Assembly: GCA_949065595.1 (NCBI GenBank)
Contig: CARSXK010000007.1
Location: 16,539 to 33,768, forward strand
DNA: 17,230 nucleotides
Direction of reading: 5' to 3'
DNA from: an uncultured Bacilli bacterium
Lineage (GTDB): Bacteria; Bacillota_I; Bacilli_A; RF39; UBA660
The notes beneath the pieces were generated by a model. That model was not told the origin of the DNA and searched no databases. It saw only the letters and a list, made by a program, of their open reading frames with translations. The translations under genes were made by a program, and so were the position numbers. Shown here piece by piece: positions 2,813 to 9,632 of the stretch (positions are counted from its first letter, which is position 1; every line of letters starts with the position of its first letter).

Positions 2813-3361
2813 TTATTTTGCAGAAAAAATGCTATTGATAGATGGGAATCTTTTTAAGACTTCATCTATGTTTGTTTCAATTTGGTTCATCATTGTTTCA
2901 TTGTAATTTGATTTTCTTGTAAATGATATTTCATAAGGTTTAAATGTGATGGTAAATGCATTTTCATGTTCTGATCCTACATCTTCTCTGTCTCGTTTAA
3001 AATTCAAATTCATTTTAATCTCTAAACTACTCATTTCATTTAAACCTTTTTCCTCTATTGTTTCTTCAAATTCCTGTAAATTATGACAAGTAGTACTACT
3101 ATACATTTTTCCTCTCAATGTGATTTCAAAAAATGTACTTCCCTTTTTAAAACTATAGTTATATTCTCCATGTTGTCCTTTATTTTTTTCTACTTCTTCT
3201 GTAAGCGCAATAAATTTATTGTACTCATCGCAACAATATTGTACTAAATATTGAATACATTCTCCTGTTGGCACAATTGTTGAATAATAATGTTGATTCT
3301 CAATTCCAAATGGTGTATTTTCATCCATATAGTTGTTCACTTTTCCACTCCTTCTTTCCAT
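2813..3361 (-). CDS. Hypothetical protein (no recognisable motif)
   Basis: 182-aa ORF with coding-like composition on the same strand as its neighbours. The start is uncertain: ATG at 3361, or GTG at 3340, which is preceded by AAGGAG. Confidence 0.55.
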   Translation of the reverse strand: MERRSGKVNNYMDENTPFGIENQHYYSTIVPTGECIQYLVQYCCDEYNKFIALTEEVEKNKGQHGEYNYSFKKGSTFFEITLRGKMYSSTTCHNLQEFEETIEEKGLNEMSSLEIKMNLNFKRDREDVGSEHENAFTITFKPYEISFTRKSNYNETMMNQIETNIDEVLKRFPSINSIFSAK

Positions 3362-3495: not shown

Positions 3496-3524
3496 TTAAA
3501 AGGCAGATATTATTTCAATCTGCC
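3496..3524 (-). terminator. Rho-independent terminator ending the DGR-target operon
   Basis: On the minus strand, GGCAGAT, a 9-nt loop and ATCTGCC (3524-3502) are followed by TTTTAAT. The hairpin overlaps the last codons and stop of the VWA gene. Confidence 0.6.
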
Positions 3525-4829
3525 CTTTGTAGATGGTACTTGTATAGAAAATAATCTTTCTAATTGCGATTCTGTTATTAAGATAACCTTTCCACAACAA
3601 GGATGAAAATTTGGATTTCCATAAACTAACCAAATAATATTTTCATTTTTCAAATCTTCTTTTGGCATATTACCAGGTCCAGGAATTCCATCTGTAAACA
3701 CAATTTTATTGATTTCTTTTTTTCTTGTAAAGGAACGAACGGCTAAATCCCAATCTTCTGTCTGTGCAGAACGTCCACGAGCTCCCGCAGGAATTTCAAA
3801 ATGATCAATGTCTGAATTCGCTTTCACTTCTACCATTCCCCAAAACTTTTCATTAAAACATCCTACTTTTAGTTTTGAGTGTTTCAATAAAGGTTTTAAC
3901 ATTCTTAAAAATGCTTTTACTAAATCTAAATCTACAGATCCTGACACATCAATTAATACTTCTGTTTCTGCTTCATCTTCTATATCATTTTCTTCTAATC
4001 GATAAGCGTAGTTATTTTCCGCAATTGAACGTCTTTGGCTCCAAATGGTCTCTGTTTTTTCTACCTCTTTTCGAACCAAAATTCTCCAATCTATTTCATG
4101 TTTACTTTGGCCAACTTCTCCCAAAGAAATTTTTTCTGATAAATTATCACCTATATTTTTAAGTACCTGCTCTTTGGCATGTTCTAAGTTTTCTTTTGCT
4201 TTTTGAATTCGTTCTTTTCTATTTTCCGAAAATTCTACACTTTCATCTATTTCTTCATATGAAAAATCGTTGGAATCAAATGAATCTTGTTGTTTTTCAA
4301 ATGCTTCTTCCCATAGACTATGATCATCACCTAAATGCTTTCCGTCTGTCTGTTCTCCTTTTTGATTATCATCTTTCTGTGATGTAGATTCTTGCGTATT
4401 CTTTTGTTGTTCCTTTTCCTTTAGTAAAATTTCATAAAATTCATTGGCAGAATAATGTAAAGCCTCTGGCCGATTGACATAACCTTCTTTTATATGAAAA
4501 CCATCACGCTTTAAATTAGCGTTTATAATCGCATCGGTTGCCTCATTCCATACATCCAAGTCTTTCTTCTCACCGTTTTTATCATTTAATCGAAAAACAT
4601 GGGCAAATTTAATATGCAAAAATTCATGTGCAACTAGAAAAATTCTGTCTTCCTCATTTAAGCTTGCAAAATACTCTGGATCCAAGTAGATTTCTTTTCC
4701 ATCTGTTGCAGCAGTATGATATTTTAAGTCAGATTTATAAGATATATGAGTTTGAGCAATCTCACTTCCAAGACGGGAATAACGGATTAATAGAAGTCTT
4801 TTGATATCAGATATTAAATGTTCATTCAT
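3510..4829 (-). CDS. VWA-like domain protein with an N-terminal putative Zn-metallopeptidase domain (DUF2201_N plus DUF2201/VWA architecture)
   Basis: The N-terminal part reads AATDGKEIYLDPEYF...VAHEFLHIKFAHVFR...WNEATDAIINANL (HExxH). The C-terminal part reads VLIDVSGSVDLDLVKAFL...GARGRS...IVFTDG (MIDAS-like DxSGS). I prefer the ATG at 4829, with AGGAG 8 nt upstream, to the TTG-type start at 4859. Confidence 0.8.
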   Translation of the reverse strand: MNEHLISDIKRLLLIRYSRLGSEIAQTHISYKSDLKYHTAATDGKEIYLDPEYFASLNEEDRIFLVAHEFLHIKFAHVFRLNDKNGEKKDLDVWNEATDAIINANLKRDGFHIKEGYVNRPEALHYSANEFYEILLKEKEQQKNTQESTSQKDDNQKGEQTDGKHLGDDHSLWEEAFEKQQDSFDSNDFSYEEIDESVEFSENRKERIQKAKENLEHAKEQVLKNIGDNLSEKISLGEVGQSKHEIDWRILVRKEVEKTETIWSQRRSIAENNYAYRLEENDIEDEAETEVLIDVSGSVDLDLVKAFLRMLKPLLKHSKLKVGCFNEKFWGMVEVKANSDIDHFEIPAGARGRSAQTEDWDLAVRSFTRKKEINKIVFTDGIPGPGNMPKEDLKNENIIWLVYGNPNFHPCCGKVILITESQLERLFSIQVPSTKGRLK

Positions 4830-4840
4830 ATGATAAACTC

Positions 4841-5224
4841 CTAAAATGCAACAACACAAAAGCGGTAAAGATCACTTACAATTTTTTGTACCGATGCTCT
4901 ATCTTTAACAGTAAATACAATAATTACATTAGAAGGTAGAAAATAACCACCCATTTCCCTATCTTTTACAAGTCCAACATAACGTTTCTGCAATTCTTCT
5001 GAAATTACATCAATTCCTCTAATCACAAAATATGTAATTTTTCCATTTTGAGCTAACAAATTCATTTTTTCTTTAAAAATAGGTTCAGAATAACAAAATA
5101 AATATGCACTGTCCATTCCAGCATCCATCACTAGTGTTTGTCCTAAATTTCTATACGCCTCATCTAAAATGACACAACAAGTTGCTTTACATCCTCTTTG
5201 TAACTCTATTAACGCCTTATTCAT
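4841..5224 (-). CDS. Hypothetical 127-aa protein, translationally coupled between the ATPase and VWA genes
   Basis: Its ATG overlaps the upstream TGA (ATGA at 5221-5224). Its stop at 4841-4843 overlaps the RBS of the VWA gene. No recognisable motif. Confidence 0.65.
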   Translation of the reverse strand: MNKALIELQRGCKATCCVILDEAYRNLGQTLVMDAGMDSAYLFCYSEPIFKEKMNLLAQNGKITYFVIRGIDVISEELQKRYVGLVKDREMGGYFLPSNVIIVFTVKDRASVQKIVSDLYRFCVVAF

Positions 5225-7134
5225 CTTCTCTTTCCAACTCCTTCACTTTGTGTAGTATGATAAGCCATAGCTAGTTCCTTCAATTCATTAATCTTTACCA
5301 TTTTATTTTCATCTGTACCAATCCAAAGCAAGTCATAAAGTTCCCGGTATTCTGGATCACAATATTGATTGATGAAAGTTCTACAGATTCCAACTTGGTT
5401 CTCATCAGCTAAAAGTAAAGAGATCATGCATGCGAATCGTTCATTGATATTTCTTGGTAAATCCGCCTGTGTATAAGTTTCCTTCACCACTTCTTCTACT
5501 GTAAGTGTAGGAATATTATAAAAGTTTAAAAATTCAGCTGCCCACCCCTCTCGGAGTTTTGTACCAATCGATATTTGCAATAAATTTTCTACGTTTTTTC
5601 CAATCAATTTTCCCGCGATTAAATCCTTTTCAAATGCATATAGTGTGTTGGAAATGGAAACCCAACCACGTGGATCATTGGTTCTACCATGACAATCATA
5701 TCGATCCAAATGTTTCTCACCAACTTCAGGTTCTTCATAGAAATAATCCATATTACAAATTTTTTCACTTCTACCTTTTTCTATATATTTTGAAGCAATA
5801 TACCCGATAACAGCAGGATGTACTTGGTTTGGAATTGCATATTCATAAATCCATTCTCCTACATGTGGTTCCATATCAAAAATATGATCAAATCTTTTTT
5901 CAAGCGGTTCTGCTACATCCTCTGCAACATTCGAATATTTCTTTTGGTTACCAGTGGCAACAATCACAGTATTCGCTGGCAATTTTAATCCCTTACCTGT
6001 TTCTACCAATCTATTTAATACCAAGGTATAAACCAAACATTGAACGGCAGGTTTTACATTCAATAATTCATCCAATAAAATGACAATTTTTTTAGTACTT
6101 GTCTTGGATCTTTCATAAATCGTATCCGCTATTTCATAAAGATTCTGTATATTGTCTTGTACCATTTTTCTTTCTGCATCAGTGGCACAAGACAAAAGTG
6201 CCTGTTTCGCAAAATCAGGAGGAATATTTTGACCTGTTTGGAAGTTCATAGATCCTACTACTTTTTCAGGAAGCATATTATTGGTTAACTTAATATAAAT
6301 TAAATCTGGATAAAGTGTTTTAATACGTTCTGTTTTTCCAATTCCAGAAGGTCCTCTTAAAAGAACAGATTGTCCAGCTTCAATCCAATTATGGATGATT
6401 TCAGTATCCGTCATGTTACGCCTTTCTGATGGAACGGTCGTATCAGGATTCAGTTTTTGCAATCTAGTTTCTCGCTTCAATCCTGATGTATTTATATTTA
6501 TGTTTTCAGATGACTTCGATAATCTTTGTATGGCTTCAAGTGCTTTTGCAAAACAGTTATCCAAATATTTTTTGATATCCGTTTGTTCAAAATTTCCTGT
6601 ATAATTACTGACATGATTGAATTGTACACCTGCAAACAATATTTTTTTTGCCACTACTTCATGCTTTTGTTCATCCACCAACCATTTGATTGGTTCAACT
6701 GCTATCCAATAAGGTTTATTTATTTGTACTTTGCTGCCATCTGATAAGGTTTCTCCCTTTGCATTTTTGTCACCCAAAAAGCGAATATATTTCTTACCCC
6801 TATATTCGTACGCAATATGATTTCGTTTTTGAAATTCTATATCATAATCACTGATATCAACAGAATCAGTTGGAAACTCGATATCTGTTTCCTTTAGTGT
6901 TTTTCTTTGATATTCCGTTTCTAATTGTGTTGCAATCGCACTTTCTACCACAGTTTGTGGCCATTCAAAGCACTCAACTTCAAAAACTCCACTAGCCCCT
7001 CTCACTTCGTTCGAGGAGATAGAAGAGATGGATGAGTATGGTAAAGCTGGACGCGCCCCAACATTGCGCGTTACTAACAGTGTTTTAGTAACTATTACCG
7101 TAACTGTCAACGACGCGCGCGTCATTATCCCCAT
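5221..7134 (-). CDS. AAA_5/MoxR-like ATPase; main body of the DGR target protein. The annotated first ~27 codons are an out-of-frame read of the VR.
   Basis: Walker A LLRGPSGIGKT (nt 6331-6354). Walker B VILLDELLNVKPAVQCLVYTLVLNR. Sensor-1-like TVIVATGNQ. Upstream of the ATPase lies NVGARPAL...FEWPQTVV...PIKWLVDEQ...IKKYLDNCF (a binding-module remnant). The ORF ends in TGA, which overlaps the next ATG. Confidence 0.8.
   Translation of the reverse strand: MGIMTRASLTVTVIVTKTLLVTRNVGARPALPYSSISSISSNEVRGASGVFEVECFEWPQTVVESAIATQLETEYQRKTLKETDIEFPTDSVDISDYDIEFQKRNHIAYEYRGKKYIRFLGDKNAKGETLSDGSKVQINKPYWIAVEPIKWLVDEQKHEVVAKKILFAGVQFNHVSNYTGNFEQTDIKKYLDNCFAKALEAIQRLSKSSENININTSGLKRETRLQKLNPDTTVPSERRNMTDTEIIHNWIEAGQSVLLRGPSGIGKTERIKTLYPDLIYIKLTNNMLPEKVVGSMNFQTGQNIPPDFAKQALLSCATDAERKMVQDNIQNLYEIADTIYERSKTSTKKIVILLDELLNVKPAVQCLVYTLVLNRLVETGKGLKLPANTVIVATGNQKKYSNVAEDVAEPLEKRFDHIFDMEPHVGEWIYEYAIPNQVHPAVIGYIASKYIEKGRSEKICNMDYFYEEPEVGEKHLDRYDCHGRTNDPRGWVSISNTLYAFEKDLIAGKLIGKNVENLLQISIGTKLREGWAAEFLNFYNIPTLTVEEVVKETYTQADLPRNINERFACMISLLLADENQVGICRTFINQYCDPEYRELYDLLWIGTDENKMVKINELKELAMAYHTTQSEGVGKRR
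7047..7121 (-). repeat. DGR variable repeat (VR)
   Basis: Aligns with 8640-8713. There are 9 substitutions (VR 7070, 7073, 7076, 7080, 7090, 7102, 7103, 7104, 7108), and every one lies where the TR has A on the minus (coding) strand. All C, G and T positions are identical. The VR has one extra nucleotide at about 7069. Confidence 0.88.
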
Positions 7135-7330
7135 CTGAAGTTCTAGTCCACCACAAACCAGTACGGTCTTTTAATGTCCTTCCTTCACTTGTATATATAT
7201 CATTTGCTACATAACCGCCTAATAAAATAGCAAAATCTGTAATAGCACATTTTGTTCCATATTGTTTAAAGATATCTAATTGTTTATCCCCAAATATTTC
7301 ATTTTGTTCTAAAAATGTAAAATCAAGCAT
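7085..7330 (-). CDS. N-terminal fragment of the DGR target (binding-module half carrying the 5' part of the VR), ended by a TR-templated TAA
   Basis: 81 aa. RBS GGTGGTGA lies 7 nt before the ATG. FTFLEQNEIF...KCAITDFAILLGGYV...GLWWTRTSDGDNDARVVDSYGNSY*. TR codons in this frame are rich in AAC and AAT (AAC AAA AAC GGT AAT AGT AAC TAA AAC AAT), as expected for the true VR reading frame. Confidence 0.7.
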   Translation of the reverse strand: MLDFTFLEQNEIFGDKQLDIFKQYGTKCAITDFAILLGGYVANDIYTSEGRTLKDRTGLWWTRTSDGDNDARVVDSYGNSY

Positions 7331-7392: not shown

Positions 7393-8412
7393 TTAACGAT
7401 TTAACAATATATCTTTCCATTTCGAACAATCACTTGTCTTTTTAATATGATTATAAAATGCATTTTTTCGTACCAACACATAAGTATCATCAACCACACC
7501 CTTACGATATAACTTACCCAATGTTTTTAAATGTTTCTTCATTCTTTGTTTAGAAGAATATCTTAATTTCATGATAATTCTCCCACTAGAACTTACAATA
7601 TGACGATATCCTAAAAAATCAATTCCATTTTTTACCATACCAATTTGTGTTTTTTGATTGAGCTGTAAATCTAAAACAGTATTACATAATCTATTTATTT
7701 CATTTTTACAATGTGATAAAAACTTTTTATCTCTATGGATTAGTATCATATCATCCATATACCTTACATAATGTTTTACTTGCAATACCTCTTTGATATA
7801 ACGATCTACTACATTCAAGTAAAAAAGCGCAAACCATTGACTCGATTGATTTCCAAGCGGTAGTCCTCTATCTGCATAATCTGGCTGTTCCTGAACTAAT
7901 TTTCGGATCAACCACATTTCATCTTCAGAAAAATCAATTTTTTCTAATAAATGAATTAAAATATCATGATGGATACTCGGAAAATATTTATGAATATCAC
8001 ATTTTAAAAAATAAATATGATTGTTATTTTCCTTGCGATATTCTTTTCTTAAAAATTGATGTAAGCGATTGATTGCAAATGTAGTACCTTTTCCCTTTCG
8101 GCAAGCACAGTTATCATAGATCAGTTTCTTTTCTATGTTTGGTTTTAAACAAACATCACAAAAACATCTAATGACTACTCTATCTTTAAAAGGTAAAGCT
8201 TCTATTAATCGTTCTTTTGGTTCATAAATATAAAATTTTTTGTATGATCCTAACTGGTATTGTTTAGTCCAAAGCGCATTCATTAAACGATATAAATTGA
8301 TGGCTAAATCAGTTTCAAAACGAATGACCTCACCTTTATGTTGTTTTGATTTACGACAATTTTTATATGCCGTATATAAATTTTCAAACGTAAAGATTTC
8401 CTCTATTTGCAT
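7393..8412 (-). CDS. DGR-type reverse transcriptase
   Basis: 339 aa. Motifs in Bordetella bRT order: FENLYTAYKNCRKSK, YEPKERLIEALPFKDRVV, CACRKGKGT, FLKCDIHKYFPSI, GLPLGNQSSQWFALFYLNVVDRYIKE (the DGR-specific GxxxSQ motif), VRYMDDMILI, GIDFLGYR. GAGGAG lies 7 nt upstream of the ATG. Confidence 0.93.
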   Translation of the reverse strand: MQIEEIFTFENLYTAYKNCRKSKQHKGEVIRFETDLAINLYRLMNALWTKQYQLGSYKKFYIYEPKERLIEALPFKDRVVIRCFCDVCLKPNIEKKLIYDNCACRKGKGTTFAINRLHQFLRKEYRKENNNHIYFLKCDIHKYFPSIHHDILIHLLEKIDFSEDEMWLIRKLVQEQPDYADRGLPLGNQSSQWFALFYLNVVDRYIKEVLQVKHYVRYMDDMILIHRDKKFLSHCKNEINRLCNTVLDLQLNQKTQIGMVKNGIDFLGYRHIVSSSGRIIMKLRYSSKQRMKKHLKTLGKLYRKGVVDDTYVLVRKNAFYNHIKKTSDCSKWKDILLNR

Positions 8413-8639: not shown

Positions 8640-8713
8640 CTGGACGCGCCCCAACATTGCGTTTTCTTACATTGTTTTAGTTACTATTACCGTTTTTGTT
8701 AACGACGCGCGCG
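8640..8713 (-). repeat. DGR template repeat (TR)
   Basis: Non-coding copy located between avd and RT. Minus-strand sequence: CGCGCGCGTCGTTAACAAAAACGGTAATAGTAACTAAAACAATGTAAGAAAACGCAATGTTGGGGCGCGTCCAG. It carries A at all 9 positions that differ from the VR. Confidence 0.88.
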
Positions 8714-8791: not shown

Positions 8792-9376
8792 CTAATTTCT
8801 TTTACGCCATCTTTCATCATCACTCTTTTTCCAAGCAACAATTAAATTGATGGCTTCTGCTAATTGAATGGATATTTGCTTATATTGCTTTTTTAAAATA
8901 CAATTAGAGTCTTCCGCAATCATCGCAACATACCCTAAAAGTTTTAACTTTACAATTGCTTCTTTTTGAAGCTGTTCTCGGCTTATTTTATTGGTTCCAG
9001 AGTCCATTCGAATCAAATTAGCTTCCAACAACAATTCTAATGTATCTAAACAATAATTCTGCATTCTATTCACAAATACGCCTCTAAACTTTTTAGGGGA
9101 TTTTTCCGTCACCGCAATTACATAAGCACCCAACTTCTTTACAACCGTAATTACCATTAGATCATTTGCATTGAACGGAATCTTGGAAATTCTTTCCAAT
9201 TCCTGATCTTCTATTTCTAATTTTTCTCTTAAAGTATTTATATTTATTTTTTGTTCATTTACACGGGCAAGCGCTTTTTTGATTGCAATGGCATCATCTA
9301 TACTATTTGCACTTGTTTCATATTGTTCTACTTGCTTTGGTATTTTTAAACTACCATTTCTATTTACCTGCAGCAC
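8792..9376 (-). CDS. avd: Avd-like accessory variability determinant (four-helix-bundle protein) with an N-terminal extension
   Basis: The C-terminal ~120 aa (KSPKKFRGVFVNRMQNYCLDTLELLLEAN...ILKKQYKQISIQLAEAINLIVAWKKSDDERWRKRN) fit the Avd/four-helix-bundle pattern, including the basic tail. The position immediately 5' of the TR also fits. The probable start is GTG at 9376, with AGGAG 10 nt upstream. Confidence 0.72.
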   Translation of the reverse strand: MLQVNRNGSLKIPKQVEQYETSANSIDDAIAIKKALARVNEQKININTLREKLEIEDQELERISKIPFNANDLMVITVVKKLGAYVIAVTEKSPKKFRGVFVNRMQNYCLDTLELLLEANLIRMDSGTNKISREQLQKEAIVKLKLLGYVAMIAEDSNCILKKQYKQISIQLAEAINLIVAWKKSDDERWRKRN

Positions 9377-9398: not shown

Positions 9399-9407
9399 AT
9401 TATATCA
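9399..9407 (-). promoter_or_regulatory. Candidate extended -10 (TGATATAAT) upstream of avd
   Basis: The reverse complement of 9399-9407 is TGATATAAT. The -35 is poor and the element lies very close to the avd RBS, so the call is tentative. Confidence 0.25.
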
Positions 9408-9632
9408 CAAGATTTTATATTTTAAAATCATTACTTTCATTTTTGAAACATATATTAATAGAACAAAATACCCATTACTATCCATTTTATATTAAGGGAA
9501 CTATTCGATAATTTTTAACCAACATCAAAAATAATGCTATATGCATATATAATATTTTATATCATTTTACGATATTTAAAAATAAGAAAAATGCCCTGAA
9601 GTTATTTAAAATCAAGACATTTTAATATCATC

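Follow-up and report, generated by a model that had tools for sequence, protein, structure and literature searches.

The stretch of DNA analysed here (the window, 17,230 nucleotides from an uncultured Bacilli bacterium) carries a compact row of genes, all on the minus strand and running from about 9430 to 3496, in which a diversity-generating retroelement (DGR) is combined with its target gene and two further genes: in order, a gene similar to avd, the template repeat (TR), the reverse transcriptase (RT), the target gene with the variable repeat (VR) inside it, a gene for a 127-aa protein and a gene for a zincin metallopeptidase with a VWA-like domain. According to the explanation that we prefer, and in which our confidence is somewhat better than even, this chromosomal DGR rewrites the N-terminal sensor of a cytoplasmic ATPase of the AAA_5 type which signals to the VWA-peptidase, the copy of the target found in the window being a null allele of the DGR's own making. 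The set of ATPase, 127-aa and VWA-peptidase genes with an N-terminal DGR target is widespread and undescribed, and it looks like a hypervariable internal sensor.

The Avd, TR, RT and VR row is a DGR. The RT (339 aa; 7393-8412) matches RVT_1 with an E-value of 4.6e-19 and carries the motifs GNQSSQ (7854-7837) and YMDD (7761-7750), the former containing the SQ dipeptide described for the RTs of DGRs (PMC3521204); its nearest relatives in the phage collection, themselves DGR RTs and including those of the tentaclin phage nd12 and of Faecalibacterium phages, are 38-40% identical to it. The Avd-like accessory gene (194 aa; 8792-9376) matches bAvd at 3.5e-5 and the NCBIfam model DivGenRetAVD at 8.7e-7, E-values that are significant, with scores (24.7 bits versus a cut-off of 40, and 29.2 versus 80) below the curated cut-offs; its position and conservation fit Avd, a similar gene standing upstream of the RT in 24 related loci, and its four-helix-bundle part spans approximately residues 75-185. 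Ahead of the Avd-matching part lies an N-terminal extension of about 75 residues, which is conserved in the related loci.

The TR (74 nt; 8640-8713) reads ARVVNKNGNSN*NNVRKRNVGARP, with an in-frame TAA, and has a single partner repeat in the window, the VR (75 nt; 7121-7047), placed by alignment to the TR at codons ~70-95 of the target. The position given to the gap decides whether the two differ by 9 or by 10 substitutions, all of them at TR adenines, of which there are 29; in addition, the VR has one inserted nucleotide. When 27 TR/VR pairs are taken together (those of 23 related loci and of the window), 341 substitutions fall at TR adenines versus 34 elsewhere, the latter mostly at the 3' boundary, where TR and VR part consistently after CCAG (VRs GCTTTACC, TRs GATTCACT). 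When the RT transfers the TR sequence to the VR it makes errors at adenines, and the VR lies inside a compact N-terminal module of approximately 270 residues. The homologous operons are themselves linked to DGRs, as adenine-specific TR/VR pairs are present at the homologous N-terminal site in 23 of the 75 species-level loci of the family; in a second clade the TR is 108 nt long and begins with WLRSAYS, while in L011-L013 one TR serves two full-length target genes each (here and below, L-numbers denote related loci and P-numbers homologous proteins, from metagenomes or uncultured genomes). The VR stretch corresponds to the hypervariable block of the family alignment, the variation between near-identical proteins being concentrated there. 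Two conspecific contigs from different samples share the TR of the window and have different VRs, with differences at adenine positions only, and therefore the DGR has been recently active in this lineage.

The target gene (5221-7330) encodes the N-terminal variable module, an AAA_5-type ATPase core and a helical C-terminal region, and is disrupted in the window into an 81-aa open reading frame (ORF; 7330-7085) and an overlapping one of 637 aa (7134-5221). Its start is the ATG at 7330, preceded by the ribosome-binding site (RBS) GGTGGTGA; the ATG at 7134, which opens the longer ORF, has none. Two lesions account for the break, both within the VR: an in-frame TAA (7085-7087), which is an unchanged copy of the TR codon, and the single base that the VR has in excess of the TR, expected at about 7069 and placed by the alignment, with some ambiguity as to the exact position, within 7073-7066. 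Downstream of this base the frame of the target is that of the 637-aa ORF, upstream of it that of the 81-aa ORF; the latter, for which an independent insertion had been considered, is instead the N-terminus of the ATPase gene. With one base taken out and the stop replaced, as the original prediction proposed, the gene yields a protein of 702 aa that aligns end-to-end with the intact homologues of 695-741 aa at 59-67% identity, and the VR indeed lies near the N-terminus, at codons ~70-95 of about 702. The same broken allele is found in L076, a separately assembled contig of 5.5 kb, so that it is not an error of the window assembly alone. Most conserved genes of the window terminate in TAA, and the TAA of the VR is therefore a real stop; an alternative genetic code was considered and rejected, as TAA, TAG and TGA all terminate conserved genes there.

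This TAA had been treated as a defect to be repaired; it is, however, already written in the TR, and such stops are found again in other members of the family. Of the family TRs, 10 contain TAA or TGA in frame, the stop falling at one of three codon positions: a TR reading N*N is found with TAA in the window, L001 and L002 and with TGA in L016 and L073; one reading VVN*NG, with TAA, in L005, L017, L040 and L056; and one reading VT*RN, also with TAA, in L035. Elsewhere in the family the codon at the N*N column of the TR is TGG (Trp), TAC (Tyr) or AAC (Asn). Four of the genomes with a TR stop have a VR with a sense codon at that place (Trp, Ser, Cys and Cys) and an intact ORF, while the remaining VRs keep a stop; counting two frameshifted VRs, null VR alleles amount to 8 of 27. 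At the observed substitution frequency of 0.47 per adenine, a stop is expected in 44% of the homing events from a TAA codon; given the TAA at a diversified TR codon, roughly four in ten retrohoming events write a stop. Stops are seen in 7 of the 10 alleles with a TAA-carrying TR, versus a neutral expectation of 0.44 per allele, and therefore they are not being purged. It has been stated as a rule that the adenines of TRs are placed so that mutagenesis cannot create stops (10.1101/2024.11.15.621889; PMC10907252 preprint). The target family departs from this rule; as stop avoidance is a usual and not a defining property, its membership among DGRs stands.

All five sampled alleles of the window lineage (window, L077, L078, L001 and L002) carry the stop. 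The ratio of nonsynonymous to synonymous divergence (dN/dS), computed between alleles of this lineage, is 0.19-0.27 in the target before the VR, 0.43-0.49 in the 70 codons after it and 0.10-0.12 in the ATPase and C-terminal part, the 127-aa gene having values of 0.09-0.27 and the VWA-peptidase of 0.12-0.23; being low on both sides of the stop, it indicates that selection acted on the full-length frame. Purifying selection despite null alleles suggests on/off switching; most simply, the DGR would generate on-state alleles, and these would be important in certain conditions. With respect to the syntenic sister species L001 and L002, protein identity is 76-92% for the flanks, 90-93% for Avd and 80% for the RT, compared with 68-70% for the target, 55-57% for the 127-aa protein and 57-60% for the VWA-peptidase; the last three genes evolve faster than their flanks.

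The same alleles might also be those of a decaying DGR target, that is, a pseudogene whose VR was spoilt once the TR had mutated to TAA, with a frameshift coming afterwards, the three downstream frames being remnants or serving a role independent of the DGR. Such decay would explain the presence of both a stop and a frameshift in the window, the stop at one codon in all five alleles of its lineage, the proportion of null alleles in the family and the absence of any depletion of stop alleles relative to the neutral expectation. We consider it quite unlikely, because the TR stop is common to species whose flanks have diverged to synonymous distances (dS) of 0.4-1.2, yet purifying selection is visible on both sides of it; because Avd, RT and TR are intact and the VRs still turn over between samples; and because TR stops arose at three codons, with a VR sense codon and an intact ORF in four of these genomes. 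A bolder proposal, possible but held by us only tentatively, is that the DGR does two jobs, diversifying an intracellular receptor and gating its expression by means of the TR stop codon. Each retrohoming event would then draw a new specificity together with an on or off state, and most cells would carry a silent receptor, with a minority displaying a random receptor on the ATPase/VWA-peptidase machine. If true, unicellular gut bacteria would possess a bet-hedged repertoire not unlike adaptive immunity, which would limit the cost of self-reactive variants; the recurrent TR stops contradict the no-nonsense rule and, if functional, would mean that hypermutation and phase variation are coupled in one element.

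The target gene and the two genes after it form a tightly packed unit whose anatomy agrees with the original prediction: the ATPase gene overlaps the next ORF by ATGA (5224-5221), the TAG of this 127-aa gene (4841-5224) falls inside the AGGAG RBS of the gene starting at ATG 4829, and the unit is closed by a terminator-like hairpin (3496-3524; GGCAGAT-N7-ATCTGCC followed by TTTT) that spans the stop of the last gene and was read directly from the sequence, a simple terminator scan not having listed it. Neither the ATPase nor the 127-aa protein nor the VWA-peptidase contains a hydrophobic segment of the strength of a signal peptide or a transmembrane helix, as had been claimed for the ATPase, and they are predicted to be cytoplasmic. 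The core of the ATPase (5890-6366) matches Pfam AAA_5 in the window (23.6 bits versus a cut-off of 22) and in all 47 homologues scanned, and has the Walker A motif GPSGIGKT (6354-6331), the Walker B motif ILLDELL (6081-6061), VATGNQ (5961-5944) and PLEKRFDH (5907-5884). An AlphaFold model of the full-length homologue P0004 has a mean predicted local distance difference test (pLDDT) score of 74, with values of about 90 in the N-terminal 270 residues; by Foldseek its best PDB matches are NorQ, McrB (the second best) and CbbQ, with E-values from 5e-4 to 1e-3, probabilities of 0.95-0.99 and low TM-scores, and its best viral matches are AAA_5 ATPases of large (jumbo) phages. Of the AAA_5/MoxR-like identity first proposed, the AAA_5 core with Walker A, Walker B and sensor 1 is thus borne out, in the broad sense of AAA_5; MoxR proper is no more than a candidate identity, the TM-scores being low and the core modelled at low confidence.

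The last gene (439 aa; 3510-4829) had been described as a VWA and HExxH peptidase of the DUF2201 type, and most of this description stands: it matches DUF2201_N at 5.8e-20, contains HExxH as AHEFLH (4631-4614) and has the elements of a metal ion-dependent adhesion site (MIDAS), DVSGS (3953-3933) and TDG (3701-3687), a pattern (DxSxS, TDG) conserved in the C-terminal half of its orthologues; a weak match to the minimal metallopeptidase MJ1213 was also found. The VWA-like family PF09967 gives no match on the window protein even at E<=10, and matches the orthologues L057 (1e-8; 35.8 bits versus a cut-off of 26.4) and L014. The 127-aa protein has no match in Pfam, NCBIfam or PADLOC; its identification as an AAA+ fragment fared poorly, a single-sequence comparison aligning 16 residues at 1.9% probability and a profile comparison with the AAA core minus the P-loop giving a weak colinear match (hhalign probability 14%). 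The metagenomic protein P0363 (882 aa) joins the N-terminal module, the AAA+ domain and the VWA-like (DUF2201) domain in a single chain, without the zincin domain, and in the widespread lineage of L082-L084 (protein P0186) the N-terminal module (283 aa) and the AAA_5 part (466 aa) are encoded by separate overlapping ORFs. As both fused and split forms exist, the N-terminal module, the ATPase and the VWA part are likely to work together. The split-ORF loci adjoin two serine recombinases, a ParE toxin and an IstB-like gene, with no DGR nearby.

Scanned for in a single genome of each species, the family yields 75 loci, every one of them in metagenome-assembled genomes, of human and animal origin, of uncultured gut Bacilli, "Tenericutes", Clostridia or Christensenella-like bacteria. 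More than 1100 close homologues of the target were found, mostly intact at 695-741 aa, and the family profile retrieves 3309 proteins at E<=1e-3 and 1011 at E<=1e-30 among representatives at 50% identity. Of the 49 loci for which at least 4 kb of downstream sequence is available, 45 have the VWA-peptidase gene and 40 that of the 127-aa protein; with the ATPase, these two proteins constitute a conserved soluble set, whether a DGR accompanies it or not. Indeed, 39 loci have the N-terminal module and 4 kb or more of upstream sequence, and of these 21 contain a full-length RT, 4 an RT fragment and 14 no RT within 8 kb; since these 14 keep the three genes and the module, the DGR is an accessory that is gained or lost. 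Of the alternative initially envisaged, a DGR inserted independently into a housekeeping cluster, one half holds: the three genes do occur without an RT, but their flanks are not conserved, so that they are not a housekeeping cluster. Beyond the core genes the sole recurrent neighbour is a gene of about 155 aa, found in 24 loci, the flanks differing between lineages; this gene (L006:10159-10677, L011:7118-7594 and 22 more) separates, in one clade, the target from the 127-aa gene and is absent from the window. In the DGR-free loci L079-L081 (Coprobacillus sp. CAG:605-like), a 664-aa N-module/ATPase protein with a longer VR-equivalent segment is followed by a 133-aa gene, a DUF2201 gene and a truncated second N-module gene (329 aa); the gene of these loci is present on very many human-gut contigs.

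Two target genes each are found in L010-L013, L025, L026, L029, L033 and L037. In these pairs there is little or no difference between the ATPase halves, whereas the N-terminal modules are old (dS 0.27-0.70 in L011-L013) and under purifying selection, the changes within the VR being almost all nonsynonymous. Positive selection on the module outside the VR finds no support, the dN/dS between paralogues being 0.12-0.41 with synonymous divergence high as well; as synonymous sites have diverged too, the contrast between module and ATPase suggests that the motor half has undergone gene conversion or that sensor modules have been exchanged. The paralogue pairs without an RT were uninformative as a DGR-free control for VR identity, because those of L008 and L039 are 100% identical over their full length and that of L006 99%. 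Just downstream of the gene set in L011 stands a gene (L011:12028-13131) whose start resembles, by eye only, an AbiQ/ToxN-type toxin.

The N-terminal module, modelled alone, gives a confident structure (pLDDT 87; predicted TM-score 0.88) that is rich in beta-strands and has a few helices. In the original prediction it was a binding module resembling DUF6273, the C-type-lectin-like variable domain of DGR targets in phages of gut Firmicutes, where the VR lies at the C-terminal end of the domain (PMC10743442, PMC11792537). The likeness holds, weakly, for the VR segment, in which about 43 residues (RTGWWWT...GARPAL) match profile positions ~124-168 of 172; the score in the window is 16.3 bits versus a cut-off of 23.5, and E<0.01 is reached in 7 of 47 homologues only. 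It does not extend to the rest of the approximately 270 residues, nor was any PDB fold matched. A circular permutation of DUF6273 (residues 116-266 as the N half and 1-100 as the C half) was tried and discarded, as the permuted sequences gave no longer or stronger Pfam match. The module is also found alone, in tandem copies and ahead of unannotated C-terminal regions; in P0003 (962 aa) and in representatives with 3-5 matched stretches, two or more tandem modules precede the ATPase.

The resemblance of the VR segment to the C-terminus of DUF6273, together with the tentaclin phage nd12 and the Faecalibacterium phages among the closest phage relatives of the RT, the jumbo-phage matches of the ATPase model and the recombinase, ParE and IstB genes that adjoin one lineage, could be read as the trace of a phage or mobile element, of which a tentaclin/DUF6273-type receptor-binding module and a CobS/CobT-like AAA_5/VWA pair would be the remnant. 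This origin seems highly improbable, considering that homologues of the module are absent from 50,697 phage records and that the window as a whole has no match in the phage collection, that phage structural genes are absent from all loci and integrases account for 2 of 140 neighbouring genes, that the proteins lack secretion signals, that the RT shares no more than 38-40% identity with those of phages, and that the flanks of the window are housekeeping genes.

Returning to the sensor explanation, the mechanism that we envisage is as follows. The DGR rewrites about 25 codons near the N-terminus of an AAA_5-type ATPase of the NorQ/CbbQ/McrB kind, and the N-terminal module would act as a ligand-binding sensor on a ring of ATPase subunits; the ligand would be a changing one, probably derived from an invader, and its binding would be relayed through the ATPase to the VWA-peptidase, which would be activated or handed a substrate and so provide the output. 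The same element would both diversify the sensor and switch it on or off. In the NorQ-NorD and CbbQ-CbbO systems the ATPase engages the VWA domain of its partner, and a similar contact may be supposed here. A role in conflict, that is, in defence, is plausible.

In place of defence, the set might be a MoxR-VWA machine for the remodelling or proteolysis of cellular or environmental proteins, whose choice of substrates (variable self proteins, incoming toxins or nutrient proteins) is broadened by the DGR; an incoming toxin as ligand would still mean a conflict role. In keeping with this are the closest structural relatives, NorQ and CbbQ, which are housekeeping chaperones with VWA partners, the lack of a match to any known defence model, the mostly housekeeping flanks and the many loci without a DGR. 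Targeted hypermutation, on the other hand, implies an unpredictable ligand, and a non-defence machine accords poorly with the faster evolution of the three genes relative to their flanks, with a genomic position that varies between lineages, with a variable copy number in which paralogues keep distinct N-terminal modules and with the tolerance of null alleles. For these reasons accessory conflict genes fit better than housekeeping ones, and we judge the non-defence machine unlikely.

Several observations weigh against the sensor explanation itself. The ATPase core of P0004 is poorly modelled (pLDDT 33-72 over residues 330-490) and the assignment to the MoxR class, based on this model, is only approximate; the contact between ATPase and VWA domain is inferred from analogy and from one fusion protein. 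As to the N-terminal module, Foldseek returned no significant match of its model in the PDB (best E 0.36), a search that may miss divergent lectin folds, and its sequence profile likewise had no PDB match, so that the ligand-binding role is drawn from the targeting by the DGR and from the ~43 DUF6273-like residues. The DGR is dispensable, as the 14 of 39 informative loci with the module and no RT within 8 kb testify. The models of PADLOC-DB 2.0 gave only generic RT matches and a weak partial match of DolB on the AAA core, and among the 140 neighbouring genes, annotated with PADLOC and Pfam, defence genes are sporadic and most are housekeeping, a count for which there is no background rate to compare. 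Finally, the sensor of the window lineage may be permanently off, selection acting on something other than the full-length protein.

The closest described relatives are the DGR-linked MoxR-vWA-VMAP "ternary" conflict systems (Kaur et al. 2020, PMC7159879; Dore et al. 2024, PMC10907252), which likewise combine a DGR with genes for an AAA+ ATPase of the MoxR kind (here an approximate assignment), a vWA partner and a peptidase; in many cases their diversified protein is predicted to be cytoplasmic, and the same logic, from variable sensor to ATPase to peptidase effector, has been proposed. There are four differences: in the ternary systems the VR lies in a C-terminal FGS/C-type-lectin domain, usually on the vWA protein or on a STAND NTPase, whereas here it is at the N-terminus of the ATPase; their peptidase is a trypsin- or caspase-like domain on the VMAP protein, and here a zincin fused to a VWA-like domain (DUF2201); the third component is here the unannotated 127-aa protein; and their hosts are cyanobacteria, actinobacteria and Chromatiales of multicellular habit, as opposed to uncultured gut Bacilli and Clostridia. 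Targets of the DUF6273 type are known from phages of gut Firmicutes, namely the tentaclins (Baykov et al. 2023, PMC10743442) and Faecalibacterium prophages (PMC11792537); shared with them are the motif WW-x-(R/K)-(S/T) ... G-(A/V)-R-P-A, the position of the VR on the C-terminal part of the DUF6273 profile and a distant RT relationship (38-40% identity). The phage module precedes Ig-like domains and is presumed to bind receptors outside the cell, while here an ATPase follows and no export signal is present; moreover, the match covers ~43 residues and not the rest of the 270-residue module, which has no homologue in the phage collection.

With NorQ-NorD and CbbQ-CbbO the family shares the best structural matches of the ATPase, a VWA partner with a MIDAS and, in one of its own members, a natural ATPase-VWA fusion; those systems act on one fixed housekeeping substrate and have no variable N-terminal module, peptidase domain or DGR. 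McrBC is an analogue in its way of working, not a fellow member, having an N-terminal specificity domain on an AAA_5 motor with the effector encoded next door; however, McrB reads modified DNA, the effector McrC is a nuclease, and a VWA partner, a peptidase and hypermutation are all missing. A 2017 study, as cited in PMC10907252, concerns a protein of a small-genome uncultured organism in which a DGR-diversified domain and an AAA-type ATPase are combined; in the account given there the variable domain is C-terminal and no VWA-peptidase partner is reported, and the protein is set apart from ours by this description only. In the library searched, no paper was found to link a DGR with DUF2201 or AAA_5. 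Earlier DGR surveys had noted N-terminal VRs before long uncharacterised regions, and the VR class was filed under phage tail fibres.

The targets of cellular DGRs are mostly taken to be binding proteins of the surface or of phage tails. That DGRs also diversify cytoplasmic sensors coupled to NTPases has been proposed from comparing the genomes of multicellular cyanobacteria, actinobacteria and purple sulfur bacteria; the present family extends the idea to common, unicellular, small-genome gut Firmicutes of humans and animals, and does so with a distinct layout, the presumed sensor being placed on the ATPase and the partner being a zincin-VWA protein of an uncharacterised family (DUF2201). A handle is thereby offered on this family and on a module of about 270 residues without a known fold, and the gene set, of three or four genes, is compact and amenable to cloning and testing.

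Target-site hairpins are known from other DGRs, and a 5-bp stem with an 11-nt loop (GAACGNAGNGA) at 6997-7019, inside the coding sequence and about 30 nt beyond the point where homology to the TR stops, may be such a hairpin, with a candidate role in homing. Examined in the window and at the homologous site of 40 related sequences, the stem shows compensatory changes in 4 of its 5 pairs, across encoded residues as different as SSNEVRG and PTNGESG; 85% of the cells are paired versus 31-55% when the partner columns are slid, and none of 500 shuffles reaches the covariation score. It is also kept in loci without an RT. The support comes from covariation only, as the DNA that follows the VR, folded as a single sequence, is no stabler than shuffled sequence. 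Like the VR of the window, two further VRs (L069:8209-8293 and L049:7962-8068) show an insertion or deletion of one base relative to their TRs, and frameshifts may be a recurrent by-product of homing in this family.

As for the remaining features of the window, whose G+C content is about 30%, a promoter-like site upstream of avd (9399-9426, minus strand; TTTAAA-16-TATAAT with a TG motif) was found by a consensus scan and is a consensus match only, such matches being no commoner in the region than in shuffled sequence. The outer parts of the window carry housekeeping genes, encoding ProRS, LspA, an RluD-like protein, a rhomboid protein, TspO, DUF3048, an HD-domain protein, DUF1848 and TfoX_N. 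Directly downstream of the operon terminator lies, on the minus strand, an ORF of 182 aa (2813-3361) without a Pfam match, which was not seen in other lineages and occupies the same position, with 76-96% identity, in L001, L002, L077 and L078.

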